This document shows positions 901 to 64,000 of a DNA stretch of 64,000 bases, one piece after another. The notes under the pieces are model-generated. The model was given only the letters and a program-made list of their open reading frames with translations, was not told the DNA's origin and made no database searches. The stretch is from a virus (Duplodnaviria > Caudoviricetes), in the IMG/VR virus record IMGVR_UViG_3300015207_000465, positions 39,410 through 103,409 of that record; one strand, written 5' to 3'. The position numbers and the translations under genes were made by a program. How positions within the stretch are numbered: position 1 is the first letter of the stretch; every line of letters begins with the position of its first letter.

Positions 901-973
901 CGCGGGTTGGAGCAGTTGGAAGCTCGCCAGTTTAACTTGCTGGAGGTCGTGGGTTCGAGTCCTACACCCGCCA
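901..973 (+). tRNA. Initiator (fMet)-type tRNA body with AAC anticodon (predicted to read GTT)
   Basis: Full cloverleaf: acceptor CGCGGGT/ACCCGCC (C1:C72 mismatch), D stem GAGC/GCTC (A11:U24), anticodon stem CCAGT/GCTGG with loop TTAACTT (anticodon 934-936 AAC), T arm GTGGG-TTCGAGT-CCTAC, discriminator A; CCA not encoded. Confidence 0.9.
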
Positions 974-3388: not shown

Positions 3389-3658
3389 ATGAGTAATATA
3401 GAAAATAACAATAATTACTGGGCATTGCGATGCAAACTTAATGATGCACATAAATTTGTGACGCCGGAAGAAGTTGCGCGTTTTCGTAAGGATTACGCAG
3501 ATGTTTTTAGGTCTTACAAAGACGAAAACGGCTTGCGGGTTTATACCGACGAAGAAGTCCAGTTTGAAGCATACGAATATTACGACGATAAGGAAATCGC
3601 TACATTTATTCACCAAGGTCAAACGCCAAAAGGGTTGGCCGATACTATGACGATGTAG
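3389..3658 (+). CDS. Hypothetical acidic protein in AT-rich cassette
   Basis: ATG ORF downstream of a TATCTTTG promoter motif (~3355). Confidence 0.65.
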   Translation: MSNIENNNNYWALRCKLNDAHKFVTPEEVARFRKDYADVFRSYKDENGLRVYTDEEVQFEAYEYYDDKEIATFIHQGQTPKGLADTMTM

Positions 3659-3659
3659 A

Positions 3660-4286
3660 GTTAAGAGGCCTAAGTTTAAAAAAAGTTTCAACGAAGAGTT
3701 GAATCGTAAGTTGTCGGATGGTGGAATAAAACATCATCCCGATGGTTTATATCCTGCTGGGGTGGGTGAATTCCATAAAGCAATTAAAATTGCTAAAAGA
3801 AATAATGGTAATGGGTGGATGGTAGAGAAAAAGGGCAGGGGAAGTTATTCCGGGCTACGCCTCTTTATGTCTAAAGATAAGAAGATGGGATTTGCCTTAG
3901 ATGGCGATAATATAGTGTCTGTCTTTAGCTGTAAGCCAAAAGGAAGTAATGCGATGGGTAAAATTATCCCATTTGCAGTAGCCATGGGTGGCAGAAGATT
4001 GGACTGTTTCGCAGGTGGTCTTCAAAATCTTTATGCCAAGTATGGTGCGCGTCCAACAGGAAAAACACATTTCGACGAGCGATATGCGCCTCCCGGGTGG
4101 GATGGAAAGTCTCATCATCCAATTGTAGCGATGAGATTGCCAAACTCCCTTGAAAAATTGATTAAGGCTTACAACCCAAGACAAAAAGTCAGCCTTAACG
4201 GGGTGCGGTATTATTCTTCGTATAATGACATGGAAAATTCAGCGAGAAAGCGTGGTGCAAGGAATAATATTAAACAAAGCTCTTAG
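3660..4286 (+). CDS. Basic hypothetical protein with GNAT-like segment; probable GTT start
   Basis: Frame opens at GA-GTT-AA one base after the upstream TAG; first ATG is codon 54; VSVFS...GG.RLDCF...L..LY..YG resembles GNAT-like folds. Confidence 0.6.
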   Translation, partial: VKRPKFKKSFNEELNRKLSDGGIKHHPDGLYPAGVGEFHKAIKIAKRNNGNGWMVEKKGRGSYSGLRLFMSKDKKMGFALDGDNIVSVFSCKPKGSNAMGKIIPFAVAMGGRRLDCFAGGLQNLYAKYGARPTGKTHFDERYAPPGWDGKSHHPIVAMRLPNSLEKLIKAYNPRQKVSLNGVRYYSSYNDMENSARKRGARNNIKQSS

Positions 4287-5013: not shown

Positions 5014-5091
5014 CAACGAAACGAAGATAAAGGTCAGTCGGAAAATTACACAATCCCCGGCTGACCATAAACCCTTAAAAAGCAAAGCAGA

Positions 5092-5292
5092 GTTAGACGC
5101 AGGAAAACAAGAGAACAAATAGAAGCCCAAGCATCGCGCCTCAGTGAAGCTAATTGGCGCAGGCGTAATGTGTGGGAAAGCGGCACCGCATCCCGTAGGG
5201 CAAAAGAGTCACGCGACCGATTGATAGATAAAGCCGAGAAGCGTGCTTTAGTTCAAAACGGATTAAGAATGGCGACCGGGGGGGGCAAATAG
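5092..5292 (+). CDS. Small Arg-rich basic protein (66 aa) with probable GTT start; absent from ORF track
   Basis: A-rich leader then GA-GTT-AG; reads (V)RRRKTREQIEAQASRLSEANWRRR...MATGGGK; the only ATG is near the end. Confidence 0.65.
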   Translation, partial: VRRRKTREQIEAQASRLSEANWRRRNVWESGTASRRAKESRDRLIDKAEKRALVQNGLRMATGGGK

Positions 5293-5311: not shown

Positions 5312-5381
5312 TGCGTGTTAGAGAAGCGGTCATCTCGCCGTCATCAGACGGAAATCGCAAGTTCGACTCTTGCACACGCAG
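5312..5381 (+). ncRNA. tRNA-like RNA with collapsed (4-nt) anticodon loop
   Basis: TGCGTGT/ACACGCA acceptor, GAGA/TCTC D stem, CCGTC-ATCA-GACGG arm, GCAAG-TTCGACT-CTTGC T arm. Confidence 0.75.
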
Positions 5382-5415
5382 CATAGAAAAATAACGGAAT
5401 TTCATTATCACGACA

Positions 5416-14320: not shown

Positions 14321-15604
14321 TCATTGTTGTTTGATTTCAGCAGTCACGCCGTTAGTGTCGGTCACGTCTGCCGGGTTAATCGTTTTTGCGGTATCGGGAT
14401 TTTCAGCAGCCACCGACAATCCTAAATCGCAGAAGCCCTTGCAAGCTCCGCGATAGCCGTTGAAAAATTCAGTGGCGGTCATGCGTCGCTTGTTCGGCAT
14501 CTGCAATTCAAGTACGGAAAGAAGATTGTCGCCACAGGCGATGTATAGCTTTCGGTCTTGCCAGAATAGCTCGCCGGGCGCATGGTGGCCACGCGGTATG
14601 TCGGTCTTTTCCGTTCTGAAAATCTTGACGCTCATGGCCTGCTTTCCAAGCATGGCCAGTGAAGTCCAAGCTGATGGGATTGGAGTAAGTGCGCGTATGA
14701 AGTCATAGACGTAATCGGCGGGCTTGAGCCACGGAATGATGCAGTCCTTGCGATGTAGCTTTGGCGCGTAGCATGGCTGGATGAAGTCACAGATAAGCTC
14801 CGACTGAGGAATGGGGTTGCATGAATGGGCTATGCGCTGGATTGCATCGTCTATCATTTCCGCGCCGGCAATGCGTAGCTTGATGTGAACGTCTTCCGCG
14901 TTATCATCTTCATCAATGCCGATGGCAAGATTGTTTATGATGCCGCCGGTGTCGATTTTGTCTTCAAGCATGAACGTTGTCACGCCGGTCATGGCATTAC
15001 CATCCTTGATTGCGGATGCGATGGTGGAAGCACCGCGATACATGGGCAGCATAGATGAGTGGAGGTTGATTGTACCCCACGACGGAATGGTGTATAGCGC
15101 ACGTGGCAGTATTCTGAACTCCACTACTACGCCGAGCGTCGCATGAAGATTGTGGATGTGCCGCAGAAATCTATTAGAGTCAAGTTTCCGTGGTTGAAAA
15201 ACAAGGATGCCCATAGATTCGGCATAAACCTTGACCGCAGATGGCCGCAGTTTCTTGCCACGCCCGCACGGTTTATCTTCCATAGTTACGACTGCCGCGA
15301 CATCATATCCGTTTTCAACAAGCATTTTTAGCGTGGGAAGCGCAAACTGCCCATTGCCGAAGAATATGATGCGTATTCCCTTGCGTGATACAGGCTTGTC
15401 AAAATCACGTTCCGGGTATGAAACAATATCAGTTTCGTCAACAATTACATAACCGCCGGATTTCTTCAATCGCAGAAAGTAAGAGCCATCATCTTTTGGG
15501 TATAAGATTTTGGCTTCCGTAAAAATACCGCCCCCATCATTACCGTGCAGGAGTCTGCTTGGAATTTGGACTGTCTGCCCGACGCGATAAAGAGGTGTTT
15601 TCAT
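14321..15604 (-). CDS. fmt: Methionyl-tRNA formyltransferase homolog, divergent, with ~75-aa N-terminal extension
   Basis: RIIFFG...FALPTL, VVT..DKP.GRG, INLHSSMLP.YRGA..I, TGVTTF....IDTG, YAPKL, IRAL.P.P.AW and ELQ...KRRM...F..G cover both Fmt domains. Confidence 0.92.
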   Translation of the reverse strand: MKTPLYRVGQTVQIPSRLLHGNDGGGIFTEAKILYPKDDGSYFLRLKKSGGYVIVDETDIVSYPERDFDKPVSRKGIRIIFFGNGQFALPTLKMLVENGYDVAAVVTMEDKPCGRGKKLRPSAVKVYAESMGILVFQPRKLDSNRFLRHIHNLHATLGVVVEFRILPRALYTIPSWGTINLHSSMLPMYRGASTIASAIKDGNAMTGVTTFMLEDKIDTGGIINNLAIGIDEDDNAEDVHIKLRIAGAEMIDDAIQRIAHSCNPIPQSELICDFIQPCYAPKLHRKDCIIPWLKPADYVYDFIRALTPIPSAWTSLAMLGKQAMSVKIFRTEKTDIPRGHHAPGELFWQDRKLYIACGDNLLSVLELQMPNKRRMTATEFFNGYRGACKGFCDLGLSVAAENPDTAKTINPADVTDTNGVTAEIKQQ

Positions 15605-21802: not shown

Positions 21803-21810
21803 GAATCAGA

Positions 21811-22899
21811 GTTAATCAGTCATTTTATTTCGATTACGCAAAGCGTTTCTTCCCCGGCCTTGTGCTGGCTATCGTAGAACGCCTCAACGAGAAGCGTGCC
21901 AATTCCGCTCTCACCTACCTTTACAAAGAAAAACTTCGCCCGCAGTTTTCGCTTGATGGCCGCTGGGCTTCCATCCTTGCGGAATACACCCGCGTAGCCG
22001 CCGACGTTGTGGCACTTGACTCCGAGCTTCCGCTCAAGAGCCGTGACACACTGGAGGTTGCTTCCGGCACAATTCCCAAAATCGGTATGAAGCTCTACCT
22101 GACCGAAAAGCAGATGAAAGACGTTGACTCGATGATTGCGCAGGGTGTTCCCCTCCAGACCATCATCGACAACATCTTCGCTGATACCCCCCGTTGCATC
22201 GAGGGCATCTGGGAGCGCATCGAAGACATCTTCCTTTCGGAGCTTTCGTCGGGTGTCGGCGTTTCCGAGCGCAACAACGGCACAGGTGTGCGCATCAACA
22301 TGAATTTCTATGACGACAACCAGTTCGCTGTTTCCAAACTTTGGAGCAACACCGACGCAACTCCGCTTGACGACATCCAGAAACTTGTTGACAAGTCCAT
22401 TACCGACGCAAACACCATCATCGACGCATACGCTGACGACACCGCCCTCGGTCTTCTCTACAAGAACAAGCAGGTGCGTTCACAGTTCGCGTTCAATCAG
22501 GGCATCGCCATGACCGGTTCGACCACCGTGCCGGTGCTTGACTTTGCGAAGCTCCAGCAGATTTTCCTCACCAAGTGGAACATCAATCTGCACCGCGTCG
22601 CCCGCCGTGTCAAGACCGAGCTTAACGGCGAAAAGAAAAACCATACCCCGTGGAAGACCGGAACAATTTCCTTTGTCTGCGATGAAGAGCTTGGCTCACT
22701 CGTATGGACTAACGTTGCCGAGGCTTCGCGCCCCGTTGAAGGCGTTGTCTATCAGACTGCCGACCAGTACATCCTCGCAAAGAAATATTCCAAGACCGAC
22801 CCCCTCCGCGAGTTTACCGCTTCCGAGGCTATGGTTGTGCCTGTGTTGAACAACGTTGACCGCATCTACACGCTCGACACTCAGACAGTTCAGGAATGA
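21811..22899 (+). CDS. Major capsid protein (362 aa), probable GTT start
   Basis: AADVVA.DS..P...R, G.IPKIG.K..L.E motifs; frame reads GTT AAT CAG TCA TTT TAT from 9 nt after the upstream stop; first ATG is codon 93. Confidence 0.8.
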   Translation, partial: VNQSFYFDYAKRFFPGLVLAIVERLNEKRANSALTYLYKEKLRPQFSLDGRWASILAEYTRVAADVVALDSELPLKSRDTLEVASGTIPKIGMKLYLTEKQMKDVDSMIAQGVPLQTIIDNIFADTPRCIEGIWERIEDIFLSELSSGVGVSERNNGTGVRINMNFYDDNQFAVSKLWSNTDATPLDDIQKLVDKSITDANTIIDAYADDTALGLLYKNKQVRSQFAFNQGIAMTGSTTVPVLDFAKLQQIFLTKWNINLHRVARRVKTELNGEKKNHTPWKTGTISFVCDEELGSLVWTNVAEASRPVEGVVYQTADQYILAKKYSKTDPLREFTASEAMVVPVLNNVDRIYTLDTQTVQE

Positions 22900-24595: not shown

Positions 24596-24620
24596 TTAAC
24601 CCCTTAACACCCATAAACGA

Positions 24621-25169
24621 GTTACAAACAACGCACCCAAAGTTTGCGCGGTCGGCATCAAAAAGCTGTACTATGCCGACACCAGCAAGGTAACGGCAGA
24701 CCTTACCGGCGCATTGCTCGCCGCACTGCTTGCCGACGAAGCCACCAAGGAAGTCAAGAACATCCATCAGGACACGTGGACTATCGAAGAGAGCGAAGCC
24801 TCGCAGGACGGCTATCGCAATCAGCTCACCGGTTCTATCTACCGCATGGGAACGAAGACCATGGGCGACGTAACTTTCAACTGGACTATCGGTCAGTACG
24901 ACTATCCTACCAAGGCTGAGTTCCTCGGTGGTGTCGCTACCGACAAGTCGTGGAAGCGTCCCCGCGGTGTCGTCGAAATCCACAAAGTCCTCATCGCACT
25001 CACCGAAGACAATCAGTATTGCGTTCTGCCCTACGCCAACGTAGCCGGTCGTGAAGCCAACACCGACGGCGCAGTAGGTCTGGGTATCGTCGGAACGGCA
25101 ATGGAGCCTACCGACCCCAACATCGCATCCGAATACTGGTTCGACTCTTCCGAGGTAGTGACCGCGTAA
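24621..25169 (+). CDS. Major tail (tube) protein (182 aa), probable GTT start
   Basis: In-frame TAA at 24597, then GA-GTT-AC reading (V)TNNAPKVCAVGIKKLYYAD; first ATG is codon 76; position before the chaperones. Confidence 0.75.
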   Translation, partial: VTNNAPKVCAVGIKKLYYADTSKVTADLTGALLAALLADEATKEVKNIHQDTWTIEESEASQDGYRNQLTGSIYRMGTKTMGDVTFNWTIGQYDYPTKAEFLGGVATDKSWKRPRGVVEIHKVLIALTEDNQYCVLPYANVAGREANTDGAVGLGIVGTAMEPTDPNIASEYWFDSSEVVTA

Positions 25170-37607: not shown

Positions 37608-40351
37608 ATGAAAATAATCGCTAACATCTACTATGTAGGCCAAATCGTATTTTCAGCCGCCCTCGCAATATGGGCGTTATACATGGCACTGCGCGGCCTC
37701 TTTACTGGCGGCTCGCTATTCGTAACGTTCTGCTTCGCAGTAATGACATGCACAACCTATTGCCTCATGTACGTGCCAAGTGTACGCGAATACAAGGAGC
37801 ATAAGGCAAGACACAACAAAAAGGCACAGACCGAGCAAAAATGATTGAACCGCAGACCGGCATACAACAGGACGTTGACCGCGTGGAAATCAGCGACACC
37901 CTTATTGACTTGATTGTCGATAAGATGGTCGATGAAATGAATGACCGGATAGCCAAGATTGACCCACGCGATGACCCCTCGGCTGAATATGGCGAATACT
38001 GGACAAGCGGAAGCTATGATAGCGATGACTATTTAGAACTGGACGAGCCAAATGACGAATACTGCATCTCGTATAAGTTTGAGCTATCGTGGGAATACCG
38101 CGAATGGACTGAATACTGGACTGACCCAGTATGTTACCCATCGTTTGACGATATGCGGAACGAAACCGGCTACGTCTATGACATAGAAATCGACACCCCG
38201 GATGGCGATGCAGTCAAACAAAGTATCTGCGACGCTATCGCAAAGAAAGTAAACGAAAAAATCGGATAAACATGAGCCTATACAACCTTATCAATGGCGT
38301 TAATCCTGCCACGTTTTTCATCTTGCCCATGCTCGGCAAGCACCCGGATGAATATCCCAGATTCAGGGATTGCTTCGTAGGGGAAGAAGATACCATCGTC
38401 GTACTTACCCGCGTAGGCGGCGCAAACCGCAACACAGGCTATGGCGAAGACAAGATAATGGGACACCCCAATTTCATCAAGACTTACGATGATGATTTTG
38501 ATAACACCTACGGCTATTACGTCTATTCAGTGCCTGACCGCTGGCGCGAAGACTACAACAAAATCATCAATGGCAAAACGCTATTCGTATCGGAAGAATA
38601 CTTTAACGAGATGCTGCGCGTATGGCCTAACCTTGAAGACAAACTGCGGAACATGTTTCATCGCCCCAAAACCGAAGAGAAATGACGAAGCGTAAATCAT
38701 CTGCGGAAGCTGCTGCGGATTATGCCGCAAAGGACTACTATATCGCACAGCGTACCGACCTACTGAAATCCGCGTTTAACGCCGGCGCATCGTGGCTATT
38801 CAATAATCAATGGCACGACGTGTACGAAGAAGCACCGCCCAAATCCGGGCAATATCTCGTCATCTACCTTATGGATAAGGGCGAGAATGAACCGCCGGAA
38901 AAGCGATACGTTCAAGTGTTCGACATCCTTGTGTATTTCAAGGATAATGAAGACGAGGGCTTATTGCCGTGGGGATTAGAAGATGAATTTGAATACCTCG
39001 CAAACGCCATAACACATTGGGCGTTCATCCCCAAAACGCCACCTATAACAACGCTGGAGGATGGGCTTTATTTAGGCGAAGCAAAGCCTTACAATCCCGA
39101 AATGCACCGGCGTGATTACAATAACCTACCAGAAGAATATCAGAAATGAAACCTATAAAATTTACATGGACGCAGACCCGTGACCCGCATTTGGCATCAT
39201 TGGTCAAGACAGACCCGGAATTTGCGGAACGAGTCAGAAAGTCAATAACCAACCTTGAGAATTGGCTTGAAAAATGTGCCGACAAAGGCAACTGGGATGA
39301 AATTGAAATGTCAATCCCTTGCAATCAGATTGTCAACAATGACATCTTGATAAATGATGTCGGGAATGAAGACCGCATGTTTCTTTTCGTGGTACTGAAT
39401 AGCAAACCAATAGAAGAAATTATGAACAGCGTAGTCACGGAACATTATACGCATCTTGTCTATCTTGACTTGATGGACTCAATCAAAGGATAGATGGCAC
39501 GACTGGATGAAGAAAGGCAAAAAGCGTTAGAGCCAGAACGCATACGCCACGCAATCAAGAAAATCACCGCCCTCGGCTATGAAATAACCGCGCAGGATAA
39601 CACATCTATAAAGTTTATCCACAACGGCAAGACCGTGACATTTTACCCTTATAGCGGATGGGCTACCGGCGCAAGCATTAAAGATGGCAGGGGTTTGAAA
39701 CACTTACTATCACAACTGAAACTAATAACCAATAAACTATAAAACTATGGCAAATAAAGAAGACAAAGCCACGGGCGTTGAAATGCTCGGAAAGGCAGTT
39801 GAGGGCGAGGTCGATGTGACCGCCCTTGAAGAAGAAATCGCTAAACTCAAAAGCGAGAAAGCGGAAATGGAAAATCGCATCCAGCGCCTTACCAATGACC
39901 GCGACCAATACAGCAAATGGTGGGGCGAGGCAACCACGGAAAAGGAGCAACTCCGCGCCGTGGTAAAAGCCATCGCAGCCTACGCCAAGCTGGTGTGACA
40001 TGAGGATACGCCCGGATGTATTGCCGAGGGTGTATAGCCGGGCGTATCTATGCCTAAATCGTTTAATCAAAGACAAATATGGAAGCAAAAGCAATAATTC
40101 AAAAAGAGGAAGAGATGATGACCGATATTCGTGCCTTCATCCCCAAAATCGTAGGCATACGCCTTGAGGCGCAAAAGGCAACGGCGTGGCTGAAAAAGCA
40201 AAACGCGGAACTCGCTACCGCGTCAGAAGAAATGTTAGAGGCCATTGAAGCCTTATATCGCGCGGAAGCAGCCATGGGTAATGCTCATCAATACTTGTTA
40301 GTATCGCAGGCCACCCTCAAGAGCGGATGTTTCACGGAAAGCGCAACCTGA
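37608..40351 (+). CDS. Operon of small hypothetical early genes (37608-37844, 37841-38269, 38272-38685, 38682-39149, 39146-39493, 39494-39742, 39747-39998, 40079-40351)
   Basis: Tightly packed ATG ORFs. Confidence 0.6.
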
Positions 40352-48500: not shown

Positions 48501-49290
48501 AGTGGGCGCAGATTCCGGGTTGAAAGATCCGACAAATATCTACGAGGGTCAATATTGGTACGAACCCGATGACCGCAACAACATCCGCGATTACGACCCA
48601 GCATATTCCCTGATGGATAATAGACGAGTTAAGGCTACGAAAAAAGGTTATTGCAGAATTGTGATGACTATCAATTTCCAAGCAAAGGGCTATAGAAGTT
48701 ATGCGGAAGTAAAGTGGGGGTCTAATCATAGCGGCAGCAAAAATCTTGCAGCATCATGGAGTGGCGAGTTCTATGTCAGCAATTTCTTTGCCAATGGATA
48801 CTGTCTTGGTATTTCCAAAAATCAGTATGTGACGGCTTACAAGGACAAGAACGACCACATGCACTTTGAAGTGGAGGATGTCAAGTACGGAATAAAAATA
48901 TCAGACGATGGTATAAAGATTAAGCATCACAGCGGCAATTTTATGCCGATGCCGTTGCTTGTGTATCGCGCCAATATTTATTACACATCATCCTCTAATA
49001 CATACGGATCATCTAAGTCTACATCCTTTGACGGAAACTACCCGACCATTTCAAAGGTTGGGGATAACGCCGGGCTTGTGCGCATTAAATTCCCTGATGC
49101 GTGGAGTGCTTTGTCGCTATCCGAAAATAACACCATTGTTCACATAGAGGGATGGTCGAGAGCGTCAAAAAGCACATTCCGGATGAAAGGTAGTATCCGT
49201 AGTATATCAAATACGGAAATAAAAGTTGAAATATCCGATGACGCATCAGCTAACGATGGCGATTTTACCATTGAAATTTATGTAATCTAA
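42505..49290 (+). CDS. Large tail-tip / host-specificity protein
   Basis: ~2260 aa; TRILAFGSERN, V.FEDVYP, SRVIGYE..LD.PYD.P.Y.IGE; TADGI/GRNLL and KLEKG..AT.YS.APED modules typical of phage tail proteins. Confidence 0.8.
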   Translation: MLTIYDNKGVKRFETPINKGSKRVFKLMADDYVTLIFSVAKPIYFKLGDYCDIPGFGRFELVSPYKPVYNRATNGYDYELRLDAQHMKWRNKIMRYLPKTGGAECAWSLTATADVHLAQVLENIEALVTETLMNGDKVINQRYLYNGATKWATLIDGSVEASAKTISYDSTNIIDALTAIAEAFECEWWLNGNIICLGKCEETNEYVDLEIGINVAEMSRSDSSEDYVTRILAFGSERNISPRYRKDLLFDVKEIANGGNRVSDTSRPLEAEWFASSMVETSSSDNTLKRVKGITIEIIDSTGAVTTTLNGVIYNPDYKSGISDKNWLQLPNGAVMQAGQRFRIKNIIESKVKSSYFSSRYSAYDDISNVVRNGIVTSRLMLPVSHGTPYIDYKPGLSMEEGVEDVVVFEDVYPRAVCAITKIDTVQRKETIQNDDGTTTETTFTAYKIKDDFFTSAHPFENDYIVPNETLKITFQDGKRYKEGDVIPDGKKVGDLINPESGKLNGWTFEVQFTKDKDGSAIWEIVRDNEVFIPNEILCPEIGDQFVLTGFDISVVDDLYVEEAEKELLDKATKYLEKLNTDPSTYDCTMMPDVMKAGLTLGLGKRVNLINDAFIETTTDANGRKWGRKSRVIGYEIPLDIPYDNPVYTIGEKAAYSRFGEIEDKIDALKFSMTAGKNYLGGYYSDGSSSSNGGIYVIKQTDITPASEINVFSALRSYLEFTSKKAKEIINYLWTFMQGIRVGNYVMNNDGAKIDPNGDAEFNDVVIRKGASVGTDLNVGGDATVGNELTVKKGVTIGDYYQPGAYGGRIWIDGLGKVHIETDYLDAREKIEAKEVEIQEETHVGGCQIISPAAMRCSRVIPIYNDANSVVAYKCFFTAEDETGTQIFNQFEVGDLAKCETFNLTKQPNGKMGNHYYWRKVTEVGYVNKGDADYDDDFGMEGYIVVSNLPKEKDTGSDAPLAGDRIITVGNDDPAKADRSNLIILASYGSGSPYIYQYKGINTFALTKDNLKVAISPNGNLFTGKFVIENGTEEVDVVDYIENNIYLEAYQLVLSNEMAGVPCDVNGNIIGDLPSSKITVFKGKTVETDWTLSSEAIGCKASIVSDHVYLSELTDKNATVTITATKKDCPTLTKVMTICKLKEGEAGVSGDHAVQFEIEPDKPMVLADMDGVCDPANLGCKVYMVIGNQNRVEVPLANTAAITTYKAGDKLLFFNGRLFVSRPVEVDVPTDLVLRYVIVNQDYVTDETTGKVSPVITSETEHIYTGKAIEMSARMKHIIFKLYRGNTLIDMQTVVVTTDASAMKVVYDTRFEVNEKEIFAHASRISQTEKDIAELRITADGISANIGKQMGIIQDIINGAGRNLLLKTNSAGVWKYASDSMSNASTIGLLNNPNNATNFYVAPRTDSTYEIFYYPIRPELIKQGEKYTFTVNIKNKTNSVSDVLEFYAVIANTNSSVQLTKTAYFDVVVGNGEYRLTVELEASATGTKTGTQVLILGIVPARINTWTAISLWHPKLEKGSTATAYSEAPEDREDYLYAELNTKIDVTAEGLRSEVTKKIGESEDRINAEHKSLIQQSADEILAQVEAWDDELGASISEIRQTANSISLKVQELAGYENLVTGNRTGTGWLLQDYTTGEFVDTTPDENGQYIIAVGDTSERRLRTSLFNLQANTKYTLSFVRGSINANTSGFAIEIKYGDAGTILHSKTFLANAMVNEIRETLTFTTGDSVVENAFIDFIHRGNRPNVQMSTMMRISQVILEIGEIAHPYVEDATGLLATGIDIINRKIVFTSDNIIFRNNKGEQSMFIDKDGRILAKFINVEELHVDHLIAGDEDGECVEIDPVQKAIYIYDINHELCTTINGEAHPGGINEIYKEVTGGSIDLYTAINGNQISNGGFSFYGDNSGIEKSQNYKVYSKSWPADAAPIVEFSQGRIYCHAYAPGFYKQRKDNLSYGADTIVSMEDMRPYFASVYVSVCLEVADDENFTQNVKTFGIHNTGVGADSGLKDPTNIYEGQYWYEPDDRNNIRDYDPAYSLMDNRRVKATKKGYCRIVMTINFQAKGYRSYAEVKWGSNHSGSKNLAASWSGEFYVSNFFANGYCLGISKNQYVTAYKDKNDHMHFEVEDVKYGIKISDDGIKIKHHSGNFMPMPLLVYRANIYYTSSSNTYGSSKSTSFDGNYPTISKVGDNAGLVRIKFPDAWSALSLSENNTIVHIEGWSRASKSTFRMKGSIRSISNTEIKVEISDDASANDGDFTIEIYVI

Positions 49291-49938: not shown

Positions 49939-49958
49939 CCCCAAATACTGTATAACGA

Positions 49959-50210
49959 GTTAAGAAAATCACAAAATGGATTAAGGAAAGCAATCGCTAC
50001 AAGCATCTCGCAGGGGGCATCGCAATAGGCATGGTCAGCAATACGCCTTATTGCGCTGCCCTTTGCGGCTGTGGCGTTGCATCCGCACTTGAGCTAAAAG
50101 ATAAGCTCTGGGGCGGTGAATGGGATTGGATAGACTGGTCGCTGACCGTCGCCGGTGTCGCCATCGGCTATTCCATCCGAGTAGGCATCACATTACTGAT
50201 TAAATCCTGA
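49959..50210 (+). CDS. Small membrane protein (83 aa), probable GTT start; absent from ORF track
   Basis: GA-GTT-AA then KKITKWIKESNRYKHLAGG...LELKDKLWGGEWDWIDW; fills the gap between the flanking genes; first ATG is codon 25. Confidence 0.7.
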   Translation, partial: VKKITKWIKESNRYKHLAGGIAIGMVSNTPYCAALCGCGVASALELKDKLWGGEWDWIDWSLTVAGVAIGYSIRVGITLLIKS

Positions 50211-60073: not shown

Positions 60074-60107
60074 ACGTTTGTAAGTGTGTGATAATCAGTA
60101 AGGGTTG

Positions 60108-60502
60108 TGGAGCTGGAGGGGTTTGAACCCTCGTCCAAACGTGGAACTAATGAGCTTTCTACATGCTTATTCTCAAATTGGTTTTCGTGTCGCGGCAGGT
60201 TTGAGACCACCAACCGCGGCCTTATCCTCTAAGTGTTCGGCGACTCTCGAGGCTTTTGTCGCTATATTCCCGATTTACCTGCACCGCCTAATCGATTAGT
60301 CTCGGGAAGAGGACAATCGGGCGATGTCTCGTCTCTGCAACTGTTGCGGAGATAAAGCTAATCTACTGTGCTTCGATTAGGCAGCGAGAGCGTAGTTGTT
60401 TTCGCCATTTGAATTGTTGATGTCTCTGATTATAGAGTGTGGGCATCATCACTCTGCATGCTTACTCACCACCTCTACACGCTGTCAAAGCCAGTCAGCC
60501 CC
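60108..60502 (-). ncRNA. ssrA: tmRNA
   Basis: 5' GGGGCTGACTGGCTTTGACAGC, 3' T arm and CAGCTCCA with G3:U70; tag ORF GENNYALAA*. Confidence 0.96.
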
Positions 60503-60757: not shown

Positions 60758-63700
60758 ATGAATGCAGTTCAGAAAATTCGTCTGTAGCTTGCAGTGTTGC
60801 TGGTCACGACATTTACTCTATCGCTTAGCGCTCAGGACATCACCGTCTCCGGCGTCGTGAGCGATGACACCGGCGAGCCCTTGATGGGTGCGACGGTATT
60901 GATCAAGGGCACCCAAAAGGGTGTGGCCTCGAACCTTGACGGAGAGTTCTCCATTCAGGCTCCTTCGAAAGGCACCCTTGTCTTCTCCTACATCGGTTGC
61001 AAGACCAAGGAGGTGGCCATCAACGGCCAGACCAAGATTGACGTGACCCTAGAGAACAATACCGAGATGCTCGAGGAGGTCGTTGCCATCGGCTATGGCA
61101 CCGTCAAGAAGAAAGACCTCACGGGTGCCGTCTCGTCGGTTGCCGGCTCTGAGCTTGTCAAGGTCCCCGTGGCCACTGCTGCTCAGGCTCTTCAGGGCAA
61201 GGCCGCAGGTCTTAACATCGTGTCGCAGAGCGGCGCTCCCGGTGCGTCGATGAACGTCACCGTGCGTGGCGGTGCATCGCTCACTCAGGGCACCGAGCCT
61301 CTCTACATCGTCGACGGCTTTGCCATGGACAACGCTCTTGCCAACATCGACGTCAACGACATCGAGACCATCGACGTGCTCAAGGACGCCTCGGCCACTG
61401 CTATATATGGTGCGCGCGGCTCTAACGGCATCATCGTCATCACCACCAAGTCGGGCCAGAAGGGCAAGACCAAGGTCGACTACAACGCCTTCTTCTCGTG
61501 GGATCATCTGGCCAAGAAGCTCGATGTTCAGGACAACCCCGTTGACTATGCTTGGTATCAGTATGAGTTTGCCGAGCTCCAGAATCGTCAGGCAGGCTAC
61601 AGCCTCTTCTTCGACGACGGCTACGGCACGACCGAGCAGGACTATCACTCTGGCGCCTACAACCGCATCCTCGACCGCTATGGCGACAGCTATGGTGTTG
61701 ACTGGCAGGACCTCACCTTCGGCGGCAATGCCTTCACGCAGAATCACAACGTGAGCGTATCGACCGGCTCTGAGAAGGTTCAGGTGCTCCTCTCGTACAA
61801 CCACAATGATCAGGACGGTCTTCTGGCCAACCACGACTACAAGCGCAACTCGCTGCGTGCCAAGATGAACGCCGAGCTCTGGAAGGGCGTCAAGCTCGAC
61901 TTCGGCATGTTCTTCTATCACAACAACACCCACGGCGGCGGCGCATACTCGGGCATGAAGAGCGTGCTCCTCTCGCCCATCAACGGCGGCACACGCTTCA
62001 CCCGCGACGAGCTCATCGGCACTCAGACCCAGCCCATCTATCGCAACGAGGGTCTGGCCGATACCTATAGCGTCAGCAACCCCCTCGTGCAGAACGGCGC
62101 CGTGCTCCAAGAGAAGCGTCAGCGCAAGCTCGACATCAACGGCGGCCTCACCATCGACTTCCTCAACGACTTCCGTTGGCGCACTGCCGTCAACTATGTC
62201 ACCGGCTGGGACAAGTCGACATCCTTCGAGGACGAAAACTCGCTCAACTACATCCTTTATGAGAATACCGAGGGCATGACCGGCAGCATCGGCAACTCCG
62301 AGAAGTATTCTTGGCGCGTCAACAACACCCTCACATGGACCAAGACCCTCAACAAGGTTCACGATCTCACCGTGATGGTGGGTCAGGAGTATTCTTACTC
62401 CGAGAGCGAGGGCAACTCCATCTCGCTGCGCAAGTTCCCCGTGCCCAACCACAAGCTCGACGACATCTCGAAGGCCGAGGTCGCCAAGAAGTCTACCAGC
62501 CACAGCAACGGCAACATGCTCTCGTTCTTTGCCCGCGCCAACTATAGCTATGACGACCGCTACCTGCTCACCGCGACATTCCGTGCCGACGGCAGCTCGA
62601 AGTTCGCCAAAGGCAACAAGTGGGGCTACTTCCCCTCTGTCTCGGGTGCTTGGCGCGTGAGTCAGGAGAAGTTCTGGACAGAGAATCAGGTGGCCGAGTG
62701 GTTCAACAACCTCAAGTTCCGCGTGGGCTATGGTGTCACCGGCAACTGCGACATCGCCTCAAACATGTATGCCACCACACTCTCGCAGACCACCTACCCG
62801 ATGGACAATCAGGAGTTTGACATGGCATTCACCACCGACGCCACCCTCGGCAACCCCAAACTGAAATGGGAGACCCTCCACGCCACCAACGTCGGCCTTG
62901 ACCTCGGCATGTTCAACAACCGCATCAACCTGTCGGTCGAGTGGTACAACAACCAGATCTCCGACATGCTCATGCTCTGCACCATCCCCTCGTCGACAGG
63001 CTATACCAAGCAGTATCAGAACATCGGCAAGATGCGCAACCGCGGCTGGGAGTTCTCGCTCAACACAGTCAACATCGCCACGCACGGCTTCCAGTGGACA
63101 TCGACCCTCAACATGTCGTTCAACAAGTCCAAGGTCATCGCCCTCGAGGGTGAGGTGCAGCAGAAGACCTTCTCGGCCGGCGACAACCGCTCGGGCTCTG
63201 TCAACTACTATGCTGTCGTAGGCCGCGGTCTCGGCGACATGTACGGCTACAAGTATGACGGCATCTATACCACCGACGACTTCAACCAGCTCCCCGACGG
63301 AGGCTGGGAACTCAAGGAGGGCGTCGTGCGTCCCGAGGACGGCAAGACTCCTCAGCCCGGCGACATCAAGTTTGCCGCCGACAACGAGGACGGCACTCAG
63401 TTCACCAAGCAGGCCGTCAAGATCGGCAACGGTACCCCCGACTTCTTCGGTGGTTTCTCCAACCAGTTCACATACAAGGGCTTCGATCTCAACGTATTCC
63501 TCAAGTTCTCTGTTGGCAACGACGTCTACAACGCCACCAAGCACTCGATGAGCCCCTATGCTCCCTTCGAGAACGCACCCAAGGAATTCGCGTCCAACTA
63601 CTATCGTCTCGTCGATCCCGCCACCGGTCTCAAGGCCACCAGCCTCGACCGTCTGCGCGAGCTCAACCCCAACGAGTCGGCCCGCACATGGAGCCTCACC

Positions 63701-64000
63701 GAGAACAACGCCGGCTACATCACCTATCCCTCGTCATACTTCGTCGAGGACGGCTCGTACCTGCGTCTCGCACAGGTGACACTCGGCTACACCTTCCCCC
63801 AGAAGTGGATGAAGAAAGCCCTCATCTCCAACCTCCGCCTCTATTTCACCGCCAACAACCTCGCCACCATCACGGGCTACTCGGGCTACGACCCCGACGC
63901 ATCGTCCAAGAACGACGACGTCATCTGTACCCCCGGCTACGACTCGTCGGCATACCCCATGTCTCGCAGCTATGTTGTCGGTGTGAACCTCTCATTCTAA
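60758..64000 (+). CDS. susC: SusC/RagA TonB-dependent outer-membrane transporter (host); in-frame TAG at codon 10 from the likely ATG
   Basis: VVAIGYGT.KK.DLTGAV, PLYIVDG, LKDASATAIYGARGSNG, GNP.LKWE, EDGSYLR, terminal F. Confidence 0.93.

Follow-up and report, generated by a model that had tools for sequence, protein, structure and literature searches.

The window analyzed here, a 64,000-nucleotide stretch of DNA corresponding to positions 39,410 to 103,409 of the IMG/VR virus record IMGVR_UViG_3300015207_000465 (Duplodnaviria; Caudoviricetes), encodes on its plus strand, at positions 901-974, a 74-nucleotide, initiator-derived tRNA with the anticodon AAC and, in addition, contains five open reading frames (ORFs) that open at GTT. 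The complete record, from a phage of a gut bacterium, is 103 kb long; Lepagella muris carries a close relative of the prophage, and the tRNA itself is also found in Muribaculaceae isolate genomes. The gene is recognized both by ARAGORN, which labels it tRNA-Val(AAC), and by the Rfam tRNA model (47.2 bits). The body of this tRNA, with CGCGGG at the 5' end, is of the bacterial initiator type: C1 faces C72, so that positions 1 and 72 do not form a Watson-Crick pair, the formylation determinants G2:C71, C3:G70 and A73 are all present, the variable loop is AGGUC, and the D stem contains A11:U24, whereas in elongators position 11 is a pyrimidine and position 24 is a purine. An elongator tRNA-Val would have a paired 1:72 and a purine at position 37 instead of the C1xC72 and U37 seen here, and the top blastn matches in phage records are annotated as tRNA-Met or tRNA-fMet rather than as tRNA-Val. 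The departures from tRNAfMet lie in the anticodon, which is AAC instead of CAU, and in the anticodon stem, where the three consecutive G:C pairs of initiators (29:41, 30:40 and 31:39) are represented by A29:U41, G30:C40 and U31.G39.

The anticodon stem-loop, CCAGU-UUAACUU-GCUGG (positions 927-943, plus strand), with the loop U32 U33 A34 A35 C36 U37 U38 closed by the U31.G39 pair, lies exactly where a preliminary description of this locus had placed it, and the loss of all but one of the initiator G:C pairs reported there is confirmed as well, with only G30:C40 left. The same description considered U37 abnormal; this base is indeed unusual, but it is not unique because phage and prophage CAU-initiator tRNAs with U37 exist, their loops being CUCAUUC, UUCAUUC, UUCAUUA and CUCAUUU. 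Upstream of the tRNA, in the interval 880-900 of the plus strand, the sequence TAATTTAG is located about 13 bases 5' of the tRNA start and is kept in relatives (TAATTTAGCA..AAACAT). This sequence resembles the Bacteroidetes -7 promoter box TAnnTTTG, and its conservation suggests that the tRNA has its own promoter.

All five ORFs that open at GTT are on the plus strand; each is preceded by an in-frame stop 1-9 codons upstream, and none contains an ATG, GTG or TTG within the next 13-31 codons. The first (3658-4286; taGA before GTT at 3660-3662, followed by AAg) encodes a 208-amino-acid protein of the family phrog_2563, and its homologues at 40% identity retain gcGA GTT AAA. The second (5090-5292; caGA, GTT at 5092, AGa) encodes an arginine-rich protein of 66 amino acids (VRRRK...), and members of the same family in G010, L014 and L211 have caGA, ctGA, tcGA and, once, TA before GTT AGA. 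The third is the major capsid gene (21809-22899; caGA, GTT at 21811, AAt), with a product of 362 amino acids that matches phrog_29 and PF03864. The fourth (24619-25169; acGA, GTT at 24621, ACa) encodes a tail protein of 182 amino acids, probably the tail tube, which matches the phrog_14600 profile from position 4 of the profile at residue 8 of the protein; the nearest homologue in phage records (41% identity), from Bacteroides phage BS-TP2, carries the annotation 'tail protein', and the relatives show acGA GTT AAC as well as CGA or AGA before GTT GAA. The fifth (49957-50210; acGA, GTT at 49959, AAg) encodes an 83-amino-acid protein, residues 2-77 of which match positions 2-77 of the phrog_38535 profile, and its relatives have aaGA GTT AAG.

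In tblastn searches against the relatives, similarity begins at residue 1 for the first, second, third and fifth genes, with GTT retained throughout; for the tail protein, it begins at residue 1 in one of the four relatives and at residue 4 in the other three, with GTT retained in all of them. Moreover, V1 of the capsid protein is aligned with M1 of homologues at 57-66% identity (VNQSFYFDY... versus MEKSLYFEY...). As judged by this comparison of sequences, the five GTT codons are true starts, and their contexts are those given in the preliminary description, namely, three GAGTTAA, one GAGTTAC and one GAGTTAG. A similar start is observed in an independent lineage (lineage B), where a ParB-like gene starts at GTT six bases past AAAGGAGG and covers the PHROG profile from position 3, and where the orthologue in another lineage has an ATG start within three residues of the same place. 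Dozens of close homologues of the capsid protein (P0001-P0060) are annotated as proteins of 340-348 amino acids and are too short by at least 17 residues, since automatic gene callers, being unable to use GTT, took a downstream GTG; these annotations point to systematic mis-annotation across this phage group. Our own codon-usage-based gene caller missed the first and the second gene, both with atypical codon usage, so that the counts below that depend on the caller are approximate.

Between the 66-amino-acid ORF and the next gene, at 5312-5382 of the plus strand, there is a tRNA-like element that is kept in the relatives L006, L009 and L010. Its acceptor-like stem (GCGUGU...ACACGC) is accompanied by a T arm of canonical form (GCAAG-TTCGACT-CTTGC), whereas a normal D arm and a normal anticodon arm are missing; in the ARAGORN output the element is listed as tRNA-??? 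with an anticodon of two bases, and there is no match to the Rfam tRNA model.

The five starts share more than the codon itself, all of them reading GA-GTT-A. The dinucleotide GA at positions -2 and -1 precedes 5 of 5 GTT starts compared to 1 of 378 internal in-frame GTT codons (Fisher test, p about 9e-11) and 3 of 57 ATG starts of the same genome (p about 9e-6), where the -1 base is T in 44% and A in 37% of the cases. There are 10 GAGTTA sites on the plus strand, and five of these are the GTT starts. We collected 24 non-redundant start contexts associated with tRNAs that carry U37 and U38, representing nine gene families from the relatives and from several independent tRNA lineages; L232, L225 and short, high-GC metagenome loci were left out because their start candidates were too noisy. 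The -1 base is A in all 24 contexts, and the -2 base is G in 22, the exceptions being TA in one L014 paralogue and CA in L244, whereas position -3 can be A, C or T. The comparison is particularly direct for the capsid gene, in which the end of the upstream gene (...caggacgaggaggccTAA/TGA) is the same: the versions with a GTT start (eight, at 68-100% identity) always have GA, whereas the orthologues with an ATG start behind the same upstream gene end have AA, AC or TT. These comparisons support the GA flank as a conserved signal that is specific to GTT starts, with the A at -1 complementary to U37 and the G at -2 wobble-compatible with U38.

Pattern scans of IMG/VR, species genomes and metagenomes for initiator-type tRNAs with AAC at positions 34-36 yielded many such tRNAs. 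In an alignment of 20 of these sequences, which share the cloverleaf fold, 11 of the 20 base pairs show compensatory changes, A11:U24 is invariant (20 of 20), and 30:40 is the only near-invariant pair of the anticodon stem (17 G:C and 2 G:U among 20). The 1:72 pair is unpaired in the consensus and mismatched in most lineages, as C.C or C.U in the relatives of the tRNA described here and as U.U, U.C, A.C or C.A in other lineages; the exceptions are L178/L175, with a G.U wobble, and L014, with a U:A pair. Most of the lineages have a pyrimidine at position 37 (loops UUAACUU, CUAACUU, GUAACUU, UCAACUU, AUAACCU, UUAACCC, UCAACCU and AUAACCG), and two have a purine (loop CCAACAA in one, CCAACGG or CUAACAG in the other).

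Among the pyrimidine-37 tRNAs, the -1 base of the apparent cognate starts is A for U37 and G for C37, as Watson-Crick pairing would predict; counted by families, the split is 9 versus 0 and 0 versus 6. The U37 part of this pattern consists of all five starts in the window and all 24 contexts mentioned above. The C37 part comes mostly from G016, a 39-kb contig (tRNA loop AUAACCU) from a host that uses Shine-Dalgarno signals, in which GTT codons were taken as candidate starts when preceded by a Shine-Dalgarno motif at a distance of 5-8 bases and when no canonical codon usable as a start lay upstream. Five candidates were found (gcAG, ttGG, caCG, atCG and aaAG before GTT), two of which open directly into classical signal peptides (VRQKLQLFIWTFLAVLIPF... 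and VRVIYRLLIMVAGALFASPSINA...), and G is at -1 in 5 of 5, compared to 2 of 9 canonical starts of the same contig. One further match to a Shine-Dalgarno motif followed by GTT, at position 21927, was rejected as it lies out of frame inside another gene. In L141, which also has C37, the tRNA is located just upstream of a portal gene with the candidate start gaggacgctGG-GTT, so that, for the C37 lineages taken together, all 6 of the candidate starts have G at -1. Covariation between the tRNAs and the starts, which the preliminary description had named as a check, is thus suggested at 37 and -1 among the pyrimidine-37 lineages but not in the lineage with A37, where a non-complementary G is found at -1 in 2 of 2 starts.

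The explanation that we currently favor, with a probability of roughly 0.55, is that the phage initiator tRNA(AAC) starts the five genes at GUU and, through the pairing of U37 with the A at -1, reads the quadruplet A-GUU. In such a scheme, the anticodon of an initiator tRNA was changed to AAC in a prophage, relatives of which reside in the genomes of Muribaculaceae and other Bacteroidales. The tRNA would then probably be charged with valine, given the identity rules of valyl-tRNA synthetase (ValRS), which recognizes A35, C36 and A73; charging by ValRS is inferred from these rules and from an engineered case in Escherichia coli described below. The charged tRNA would be formylated by Fmt of either the host or the phage. 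Indeed, the window encodes on the minus strand, at 14321-15604, a homologue of methionyl-tRNA formyltransferase (Fmt), residues 78-386 of which match the NCBIfam model TIGR00460 fmt with a score of 217.8 bits (cut-off, 201.5), and this homologue is the likely formylating partner. The tRNA would be placed in the P site on the GUU of the five phage genes, including those for the major capsid protein and the tail protein, where the pyrimidine at position 37 would physically pair with the purine at mRNA position -1, making U37:A the fourth pair of an effective quadruplet. The conserved G at -2 perhaps makes a wobble pair or a stacking contact with U38, or else is read by something other than the tRNA, and the 5' side of the loop (U32, U33) would take no part. 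A likely reason for the pyrimidine is that A37 would favor U at -1 and so give rise to an out-of-frame NUG start overlapping GUU.

Several observations weigh against this explanation. The tRNA of lineage E (G002/L140; loop CCAACAA with A37 and A38; Rfam tRNA score of 41 bits) is associated with CG at -2 and -1, where pairing predicts UU: its two well-supported GTT starts, those of a scaffold protein and a small terminase subunit, are both located behind Shine-Dalgarno motifs and both read aaCG-GTT, although G at -1 is common in this lineage anyway (8 of 30). In the Dokdonella-type lineage, which has C37 and C38 (loop UUAACCC), the two adjacent candidate starts are CA-GTT and AG-GTT, with both A and G at -1, and these starts have no Pfam support; neither are there PHROG or Pfam matches for the candidate starts of G016, which therefore come without confirmation by homology. 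As for the -2 base, the G is never replaced by A in the U37U38 contexts, despite the better pairing of A with U38, and in G016, with its C37 and U38, the -2 base does not follow U38, being A, G, C, C and A. Why the U37U38 lineages require G at -2 is not accounted for by quadruplet reading. Furthermore, where phages carry CAU-initiator tRNAs with U37, the -1 base of ATG starts is not shifted in the pooled IMG/VR loci (A 34% and T 44%, n=32, for the U37 group; A 35% and T 38%, n=576, for the A37 group), although one Barnesiella prophage of the U37 type looked rich in A at -1 (11 of 20 starts); nothing can be learned from this comparison, however, as ATG starts of such phages are served by the host initiator, too.

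Finally on this side of the balance, the GA flank is not avoided inside genes. On the coding strand, GAGTTA occurs within genes once in frame and four times out of frame, with no sign of depletion; one of the internal GA-GTT sites is at position 48628. Internal in-frame NGA-GTT, pooled over the relatives, is not specifically depleted, GTT being on a par with GTA, GTC and GTG. Selection against false starts as the cause of the rarity of internal GA-GTT was considered and discarded: the count is 1 of 378 in G000, but NGA precedes codons starting with G in about 1% of the cases regardless of the codon. It follows from the lack of depletion that the flank alone cannot separate starts from ordinary GTT codons, contrary to the idea put forward when the locus was first described.

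An alternative that we consider unlikely is that the GA (or NG) before the start has a reader different from the tRNA loop, such as the ribosomal E-site region or a phage factor, or is set by avoidance rules, given that U at -1 creates an overlapping NUG; the pyrimidine at 37 and U38 would then serve another purpose, for instance, escape from host nucleases that cut the loops of initiator tRNAs, or exclusion from elongation. Phage tRNAs are said to mutate their anticodon loops in ways that evade host nucleases, and the phage CAU-initiator tRNAs listed above, which have U37 or altered bases at 32 and 38, indicate that variation in this loop is common without any change of the start codon. Compatible with this alternative are also the choice of G at -2, which is not the best partner of U38, and the shared context AACG-GTT of lineage E, which is not complementary to the loop. 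However, avoidance of U at -1 leaves unexplained why the base is A in 24 of 24 contexts with U37 and G in 6 of 6 with C37, and an interaction between positions 37 and -1 has been established experimentally for tRNAfMet (PMC10018350).

Quite improbable, in our view, is the more extensive pairing originally proposed for this locus, in which all seven loop bases, U32 to U38, pair with GAGUUAA, the resulting 7-bp duplex marking true starts in a host that lacks Shine-Dalgarno signals and compensating for the lost G:C pairs of the stem. GAGTTAA is found at three of the five sites in the window and at many sites in the relatives, and the loop UUAACUU is retained on several different stems in independent lineages (CUGGU/GCCAG, CUUGU/GCAAG, UUGGU/GCCAA and CCCGG/CCGGG). 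However, +5 is A, G or C at the starts in the window and in the relatives, and -2 is never A. At +4, A prevails at GTT starts, but three relatives have G there in the gene for the tail protein, and a conserved family of 68-amino-acid ORFs has C or T, so that, of the two flanking A residues whose conservation in homologues had been anticipated, the one at -1 is invariant and the one at +4 is not. Nor is the +4 base specific to GTT, because at the ATG starts of the same genomes it is A in 41-63% and G in 20-46% of the cases; on the basis of this comparison, the preference for A or G at +4 is a generic start context. In L180, where the tRNA has C33, the +4 base of the 68-amino-acid ORF family stays C and does not shift to G. 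Pairing of 32 and 33 with +4 and +5 is also sterically unlikely: as is known from ribosome structures, the U-turn is made by U33, and a kink in the mRNA separates the P-site codon from the A-site codon. The occurrence of GAGTTAA-type sites next to strong Shine-Dalgarno motifs in lineage B implies that the context is no substitute for the Shine-Dalgarno signal, contrary to the role suggested for it, and the internal GAGTTA sites discussed above likewise fail to show the depletion expected of a start mark. To judge from the aligned starts, the seven-base pairing is an over-reading.

That the shared context merely reflects inheritance or chance and has no function appears extremely improbable: many of the contexts were taken from phages related to one another, which makes these 24 less than fully independent, but A at -1 is common to nine unrelated gene families and several tRNA lineages, GA is fixed while -3 and positions further upstream vary freely, ATG-start capsid orthologues behind the same upstream gene end carry other dinucleotides, and the comparisons with internal GTT codons and with ATG starts by Fisher tests yield p values no higher than 1e-5.

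Returning to the quadruplet reading of A-GUU, a broader scenario can be built around it, which we offer tentatively and regard, in its entirety, as possible rather than probable. In phages of several bacterial phyla, an orthogonal start code would have arisen independently or been passed between them, one in which an initiator tRNA with the anticodon AAC and a pyrimidine at 37 reads R-GUU (GA-GUU in Bacteroidales phages), so that virion genes are translated only in the presence of the phage tRNA and Fmt. The additional pair would replace the stability and the P-site discrimination that are conferred by the three G:C pairs, and the pyrimidine at 37 would make the -1 base a purine, thus avoiding an overlapping NUG.

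The searches brought up other tRNAs that seem to be of interest in their own right. Lineage C (L124, L129-L133, L135, L137-L139, L142 and L191) comprises phage tRNAs that are widespread and combine an initiator-like body (A1xC72) with the loop CCAACGG or CUAACAG, C33 being present in some members; it includes 12 IMG/VR contigs along with a few loci of about 50 kb from metagenomes and metagenome-assembled genomes, and in its 98%-complete, 50-kb representative, G001, no gene that would need a GTT start was found. Genomes of Dokdonella and metagenomes (L178/L269, L187, L175 and L199) contain a chromosomal initiator-like tRNA(AAC) with an encoded CCA and the loop UUAACCC or CUAACCU, about 1 kb downstream of a high-scoring ORF of 315 amino acids and an ORF of 88 amino acids, both of which lack a canonical start and may open at GTT; this tRNA may be dedicated to the adjoining genes. 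Initiator tRNAs of phages may have been reassigned to anticodons other than AAC as well, considering that the IMG/VR loci L033 and L065 encode initiator-type tRNAs with the loops CUUAUAA (anticodon UAU, which would read AUA) and CCAAUAA (anticodon AAU, which would read AUU). On a Paramuribaculum contig (L176, 229-302, minus strand), a tRNA-Gly with the anticodon ACC, in which A34 is unusual for bacteria, is located near the tRNA(AAC). In the 42-kb provirus G017 (L279/L282-L284), where the tRNA loop is UUAACUU, several genes have an in-frame GTT directly before ATG (aaT GTT ATG, aaA GTT ATG and aCA GTT ATG); these pairs may be tandem starts open to either initiator or may be due to chance.

Near the right end of the virus record, at 60105-60502 of the minus strand of the window, lies a full-length gene for transfer-messenger RNA (tmRNA; Rfam, 129.6 bits; tag GENNYALAA), and beyond it, at 62000-64000, the G+C content rises from about 0.46 to 0.58. 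This region is probably either a prophage-host junction at ssrA or the site of a phage-borne tmRNA.

According to the common view, bacteria choose their start sites by means of a three-base codon that a single, universal initiator tRNA reads. Should the quadruplet reading be correct, the phages described here would provide a natural case in which translation is initiated orthogonally, at an extended start codon, by a system that conceivably functions as a switch for the timing of late genes or for host takeover, that would explain the truncated calls of the capsid gene, and that would provide synthetic biology with a ready-made part, the AAC/GUU pair having been engineered independently. In the open-access literature that we searched, GUU-initiator tRNAs are reported as engineered ones only, with no natural example.

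The comparison with known systems begins with the initiator of the host. The host-type initiator of Lepagella muris has the anticodon stem-loop UUGGG-CUCAUAA-CCCAA with all three G:C pairs. The phage tRNA shares with tRNAfMet the 1:72 mismatch, G2:C71, C3:G70, A11:U24, A73, the AGGUC variable loop and G30:C40; it differs from the Lepagella muris initiator in having AAC in place of CAU, UUAACUU in place of CUCAUAA, and one of the three G:C pairs. The closest precedent for the fourth pair is the quadruplet pairing of tRNAfMet itself, in which the base 3' of the anticodon interacts with the base 5' of the start codon, as U37 with A and C37 with G would do naturally here. Pairing between 37 and -1 has long been proposed, with compensatory changes tested in chloroplasts (Esposito et al. 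2003, as cited in PMC10018350), and in E. coli, in a large-scale test, the A37U and A37G variants of tRNAfMet came to favor, at -1, a base that is complementary to position 37 or can form a wobble pair with it (Hollerer and Jeschek 2023, PMC10018350). In contrast to the E. coli and chloroplast cases, which involve modest tuning with AUG and A37, the phage has a pyrimidine at 37, GUU, an invariant -1 base and a fixed G at -2; what is subtle tuning in E. coli seems to be obligatory in the private initiation of the phage capsid and tail protein genes.

The second relevant system is artificial. An engineered E. coli initiator tRNA(AAC) initiates at GUU with Val and fVal, with charging and formylation limiting, according to a preprint from the Jaschke laboratory (bioRxiv 10.64898/2025.12.21.695813); an orthogonal initiator tRNA(AAC)/GUU pair of the same laboratory is also the subject of an earlier preprint (bioRxiv 10.1101/2021.05.25.445580). 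Both the engineered and the phage tRNA combine an initiator body with the anticodon AAC and a GUU start, and the phage adds an Fmt of its own. In the engineered tRNA, however, the anticodon of tRNAfMet alone was changed, whereas the phage tRNA also differs from the host initiator at positions 32, 37 and 38 and in two G:C pairs of the stem, occurs naturally in Bacteroidales phages and other lineages, and serves starts with a fixed GA flank. Finally, there is a likeness to frameshift-suppressor and quadruplet-decoding tRNAs, in which four mRNA bases are read by bases of the anticodon loop, and ARAGORN indeed assigns the four-base anticodon AACU to the tRNA of lineage D (L127). Yet, frameshift suppressors act in the A site during elongation, usually have an 8-nucleotide loop, and shift the reading frame, whereas the phage tRNA, with a 7-nucleotide loop, would act at P-site initiation, read the extra base on the 5' side of the codon and leave the frame unchanged.
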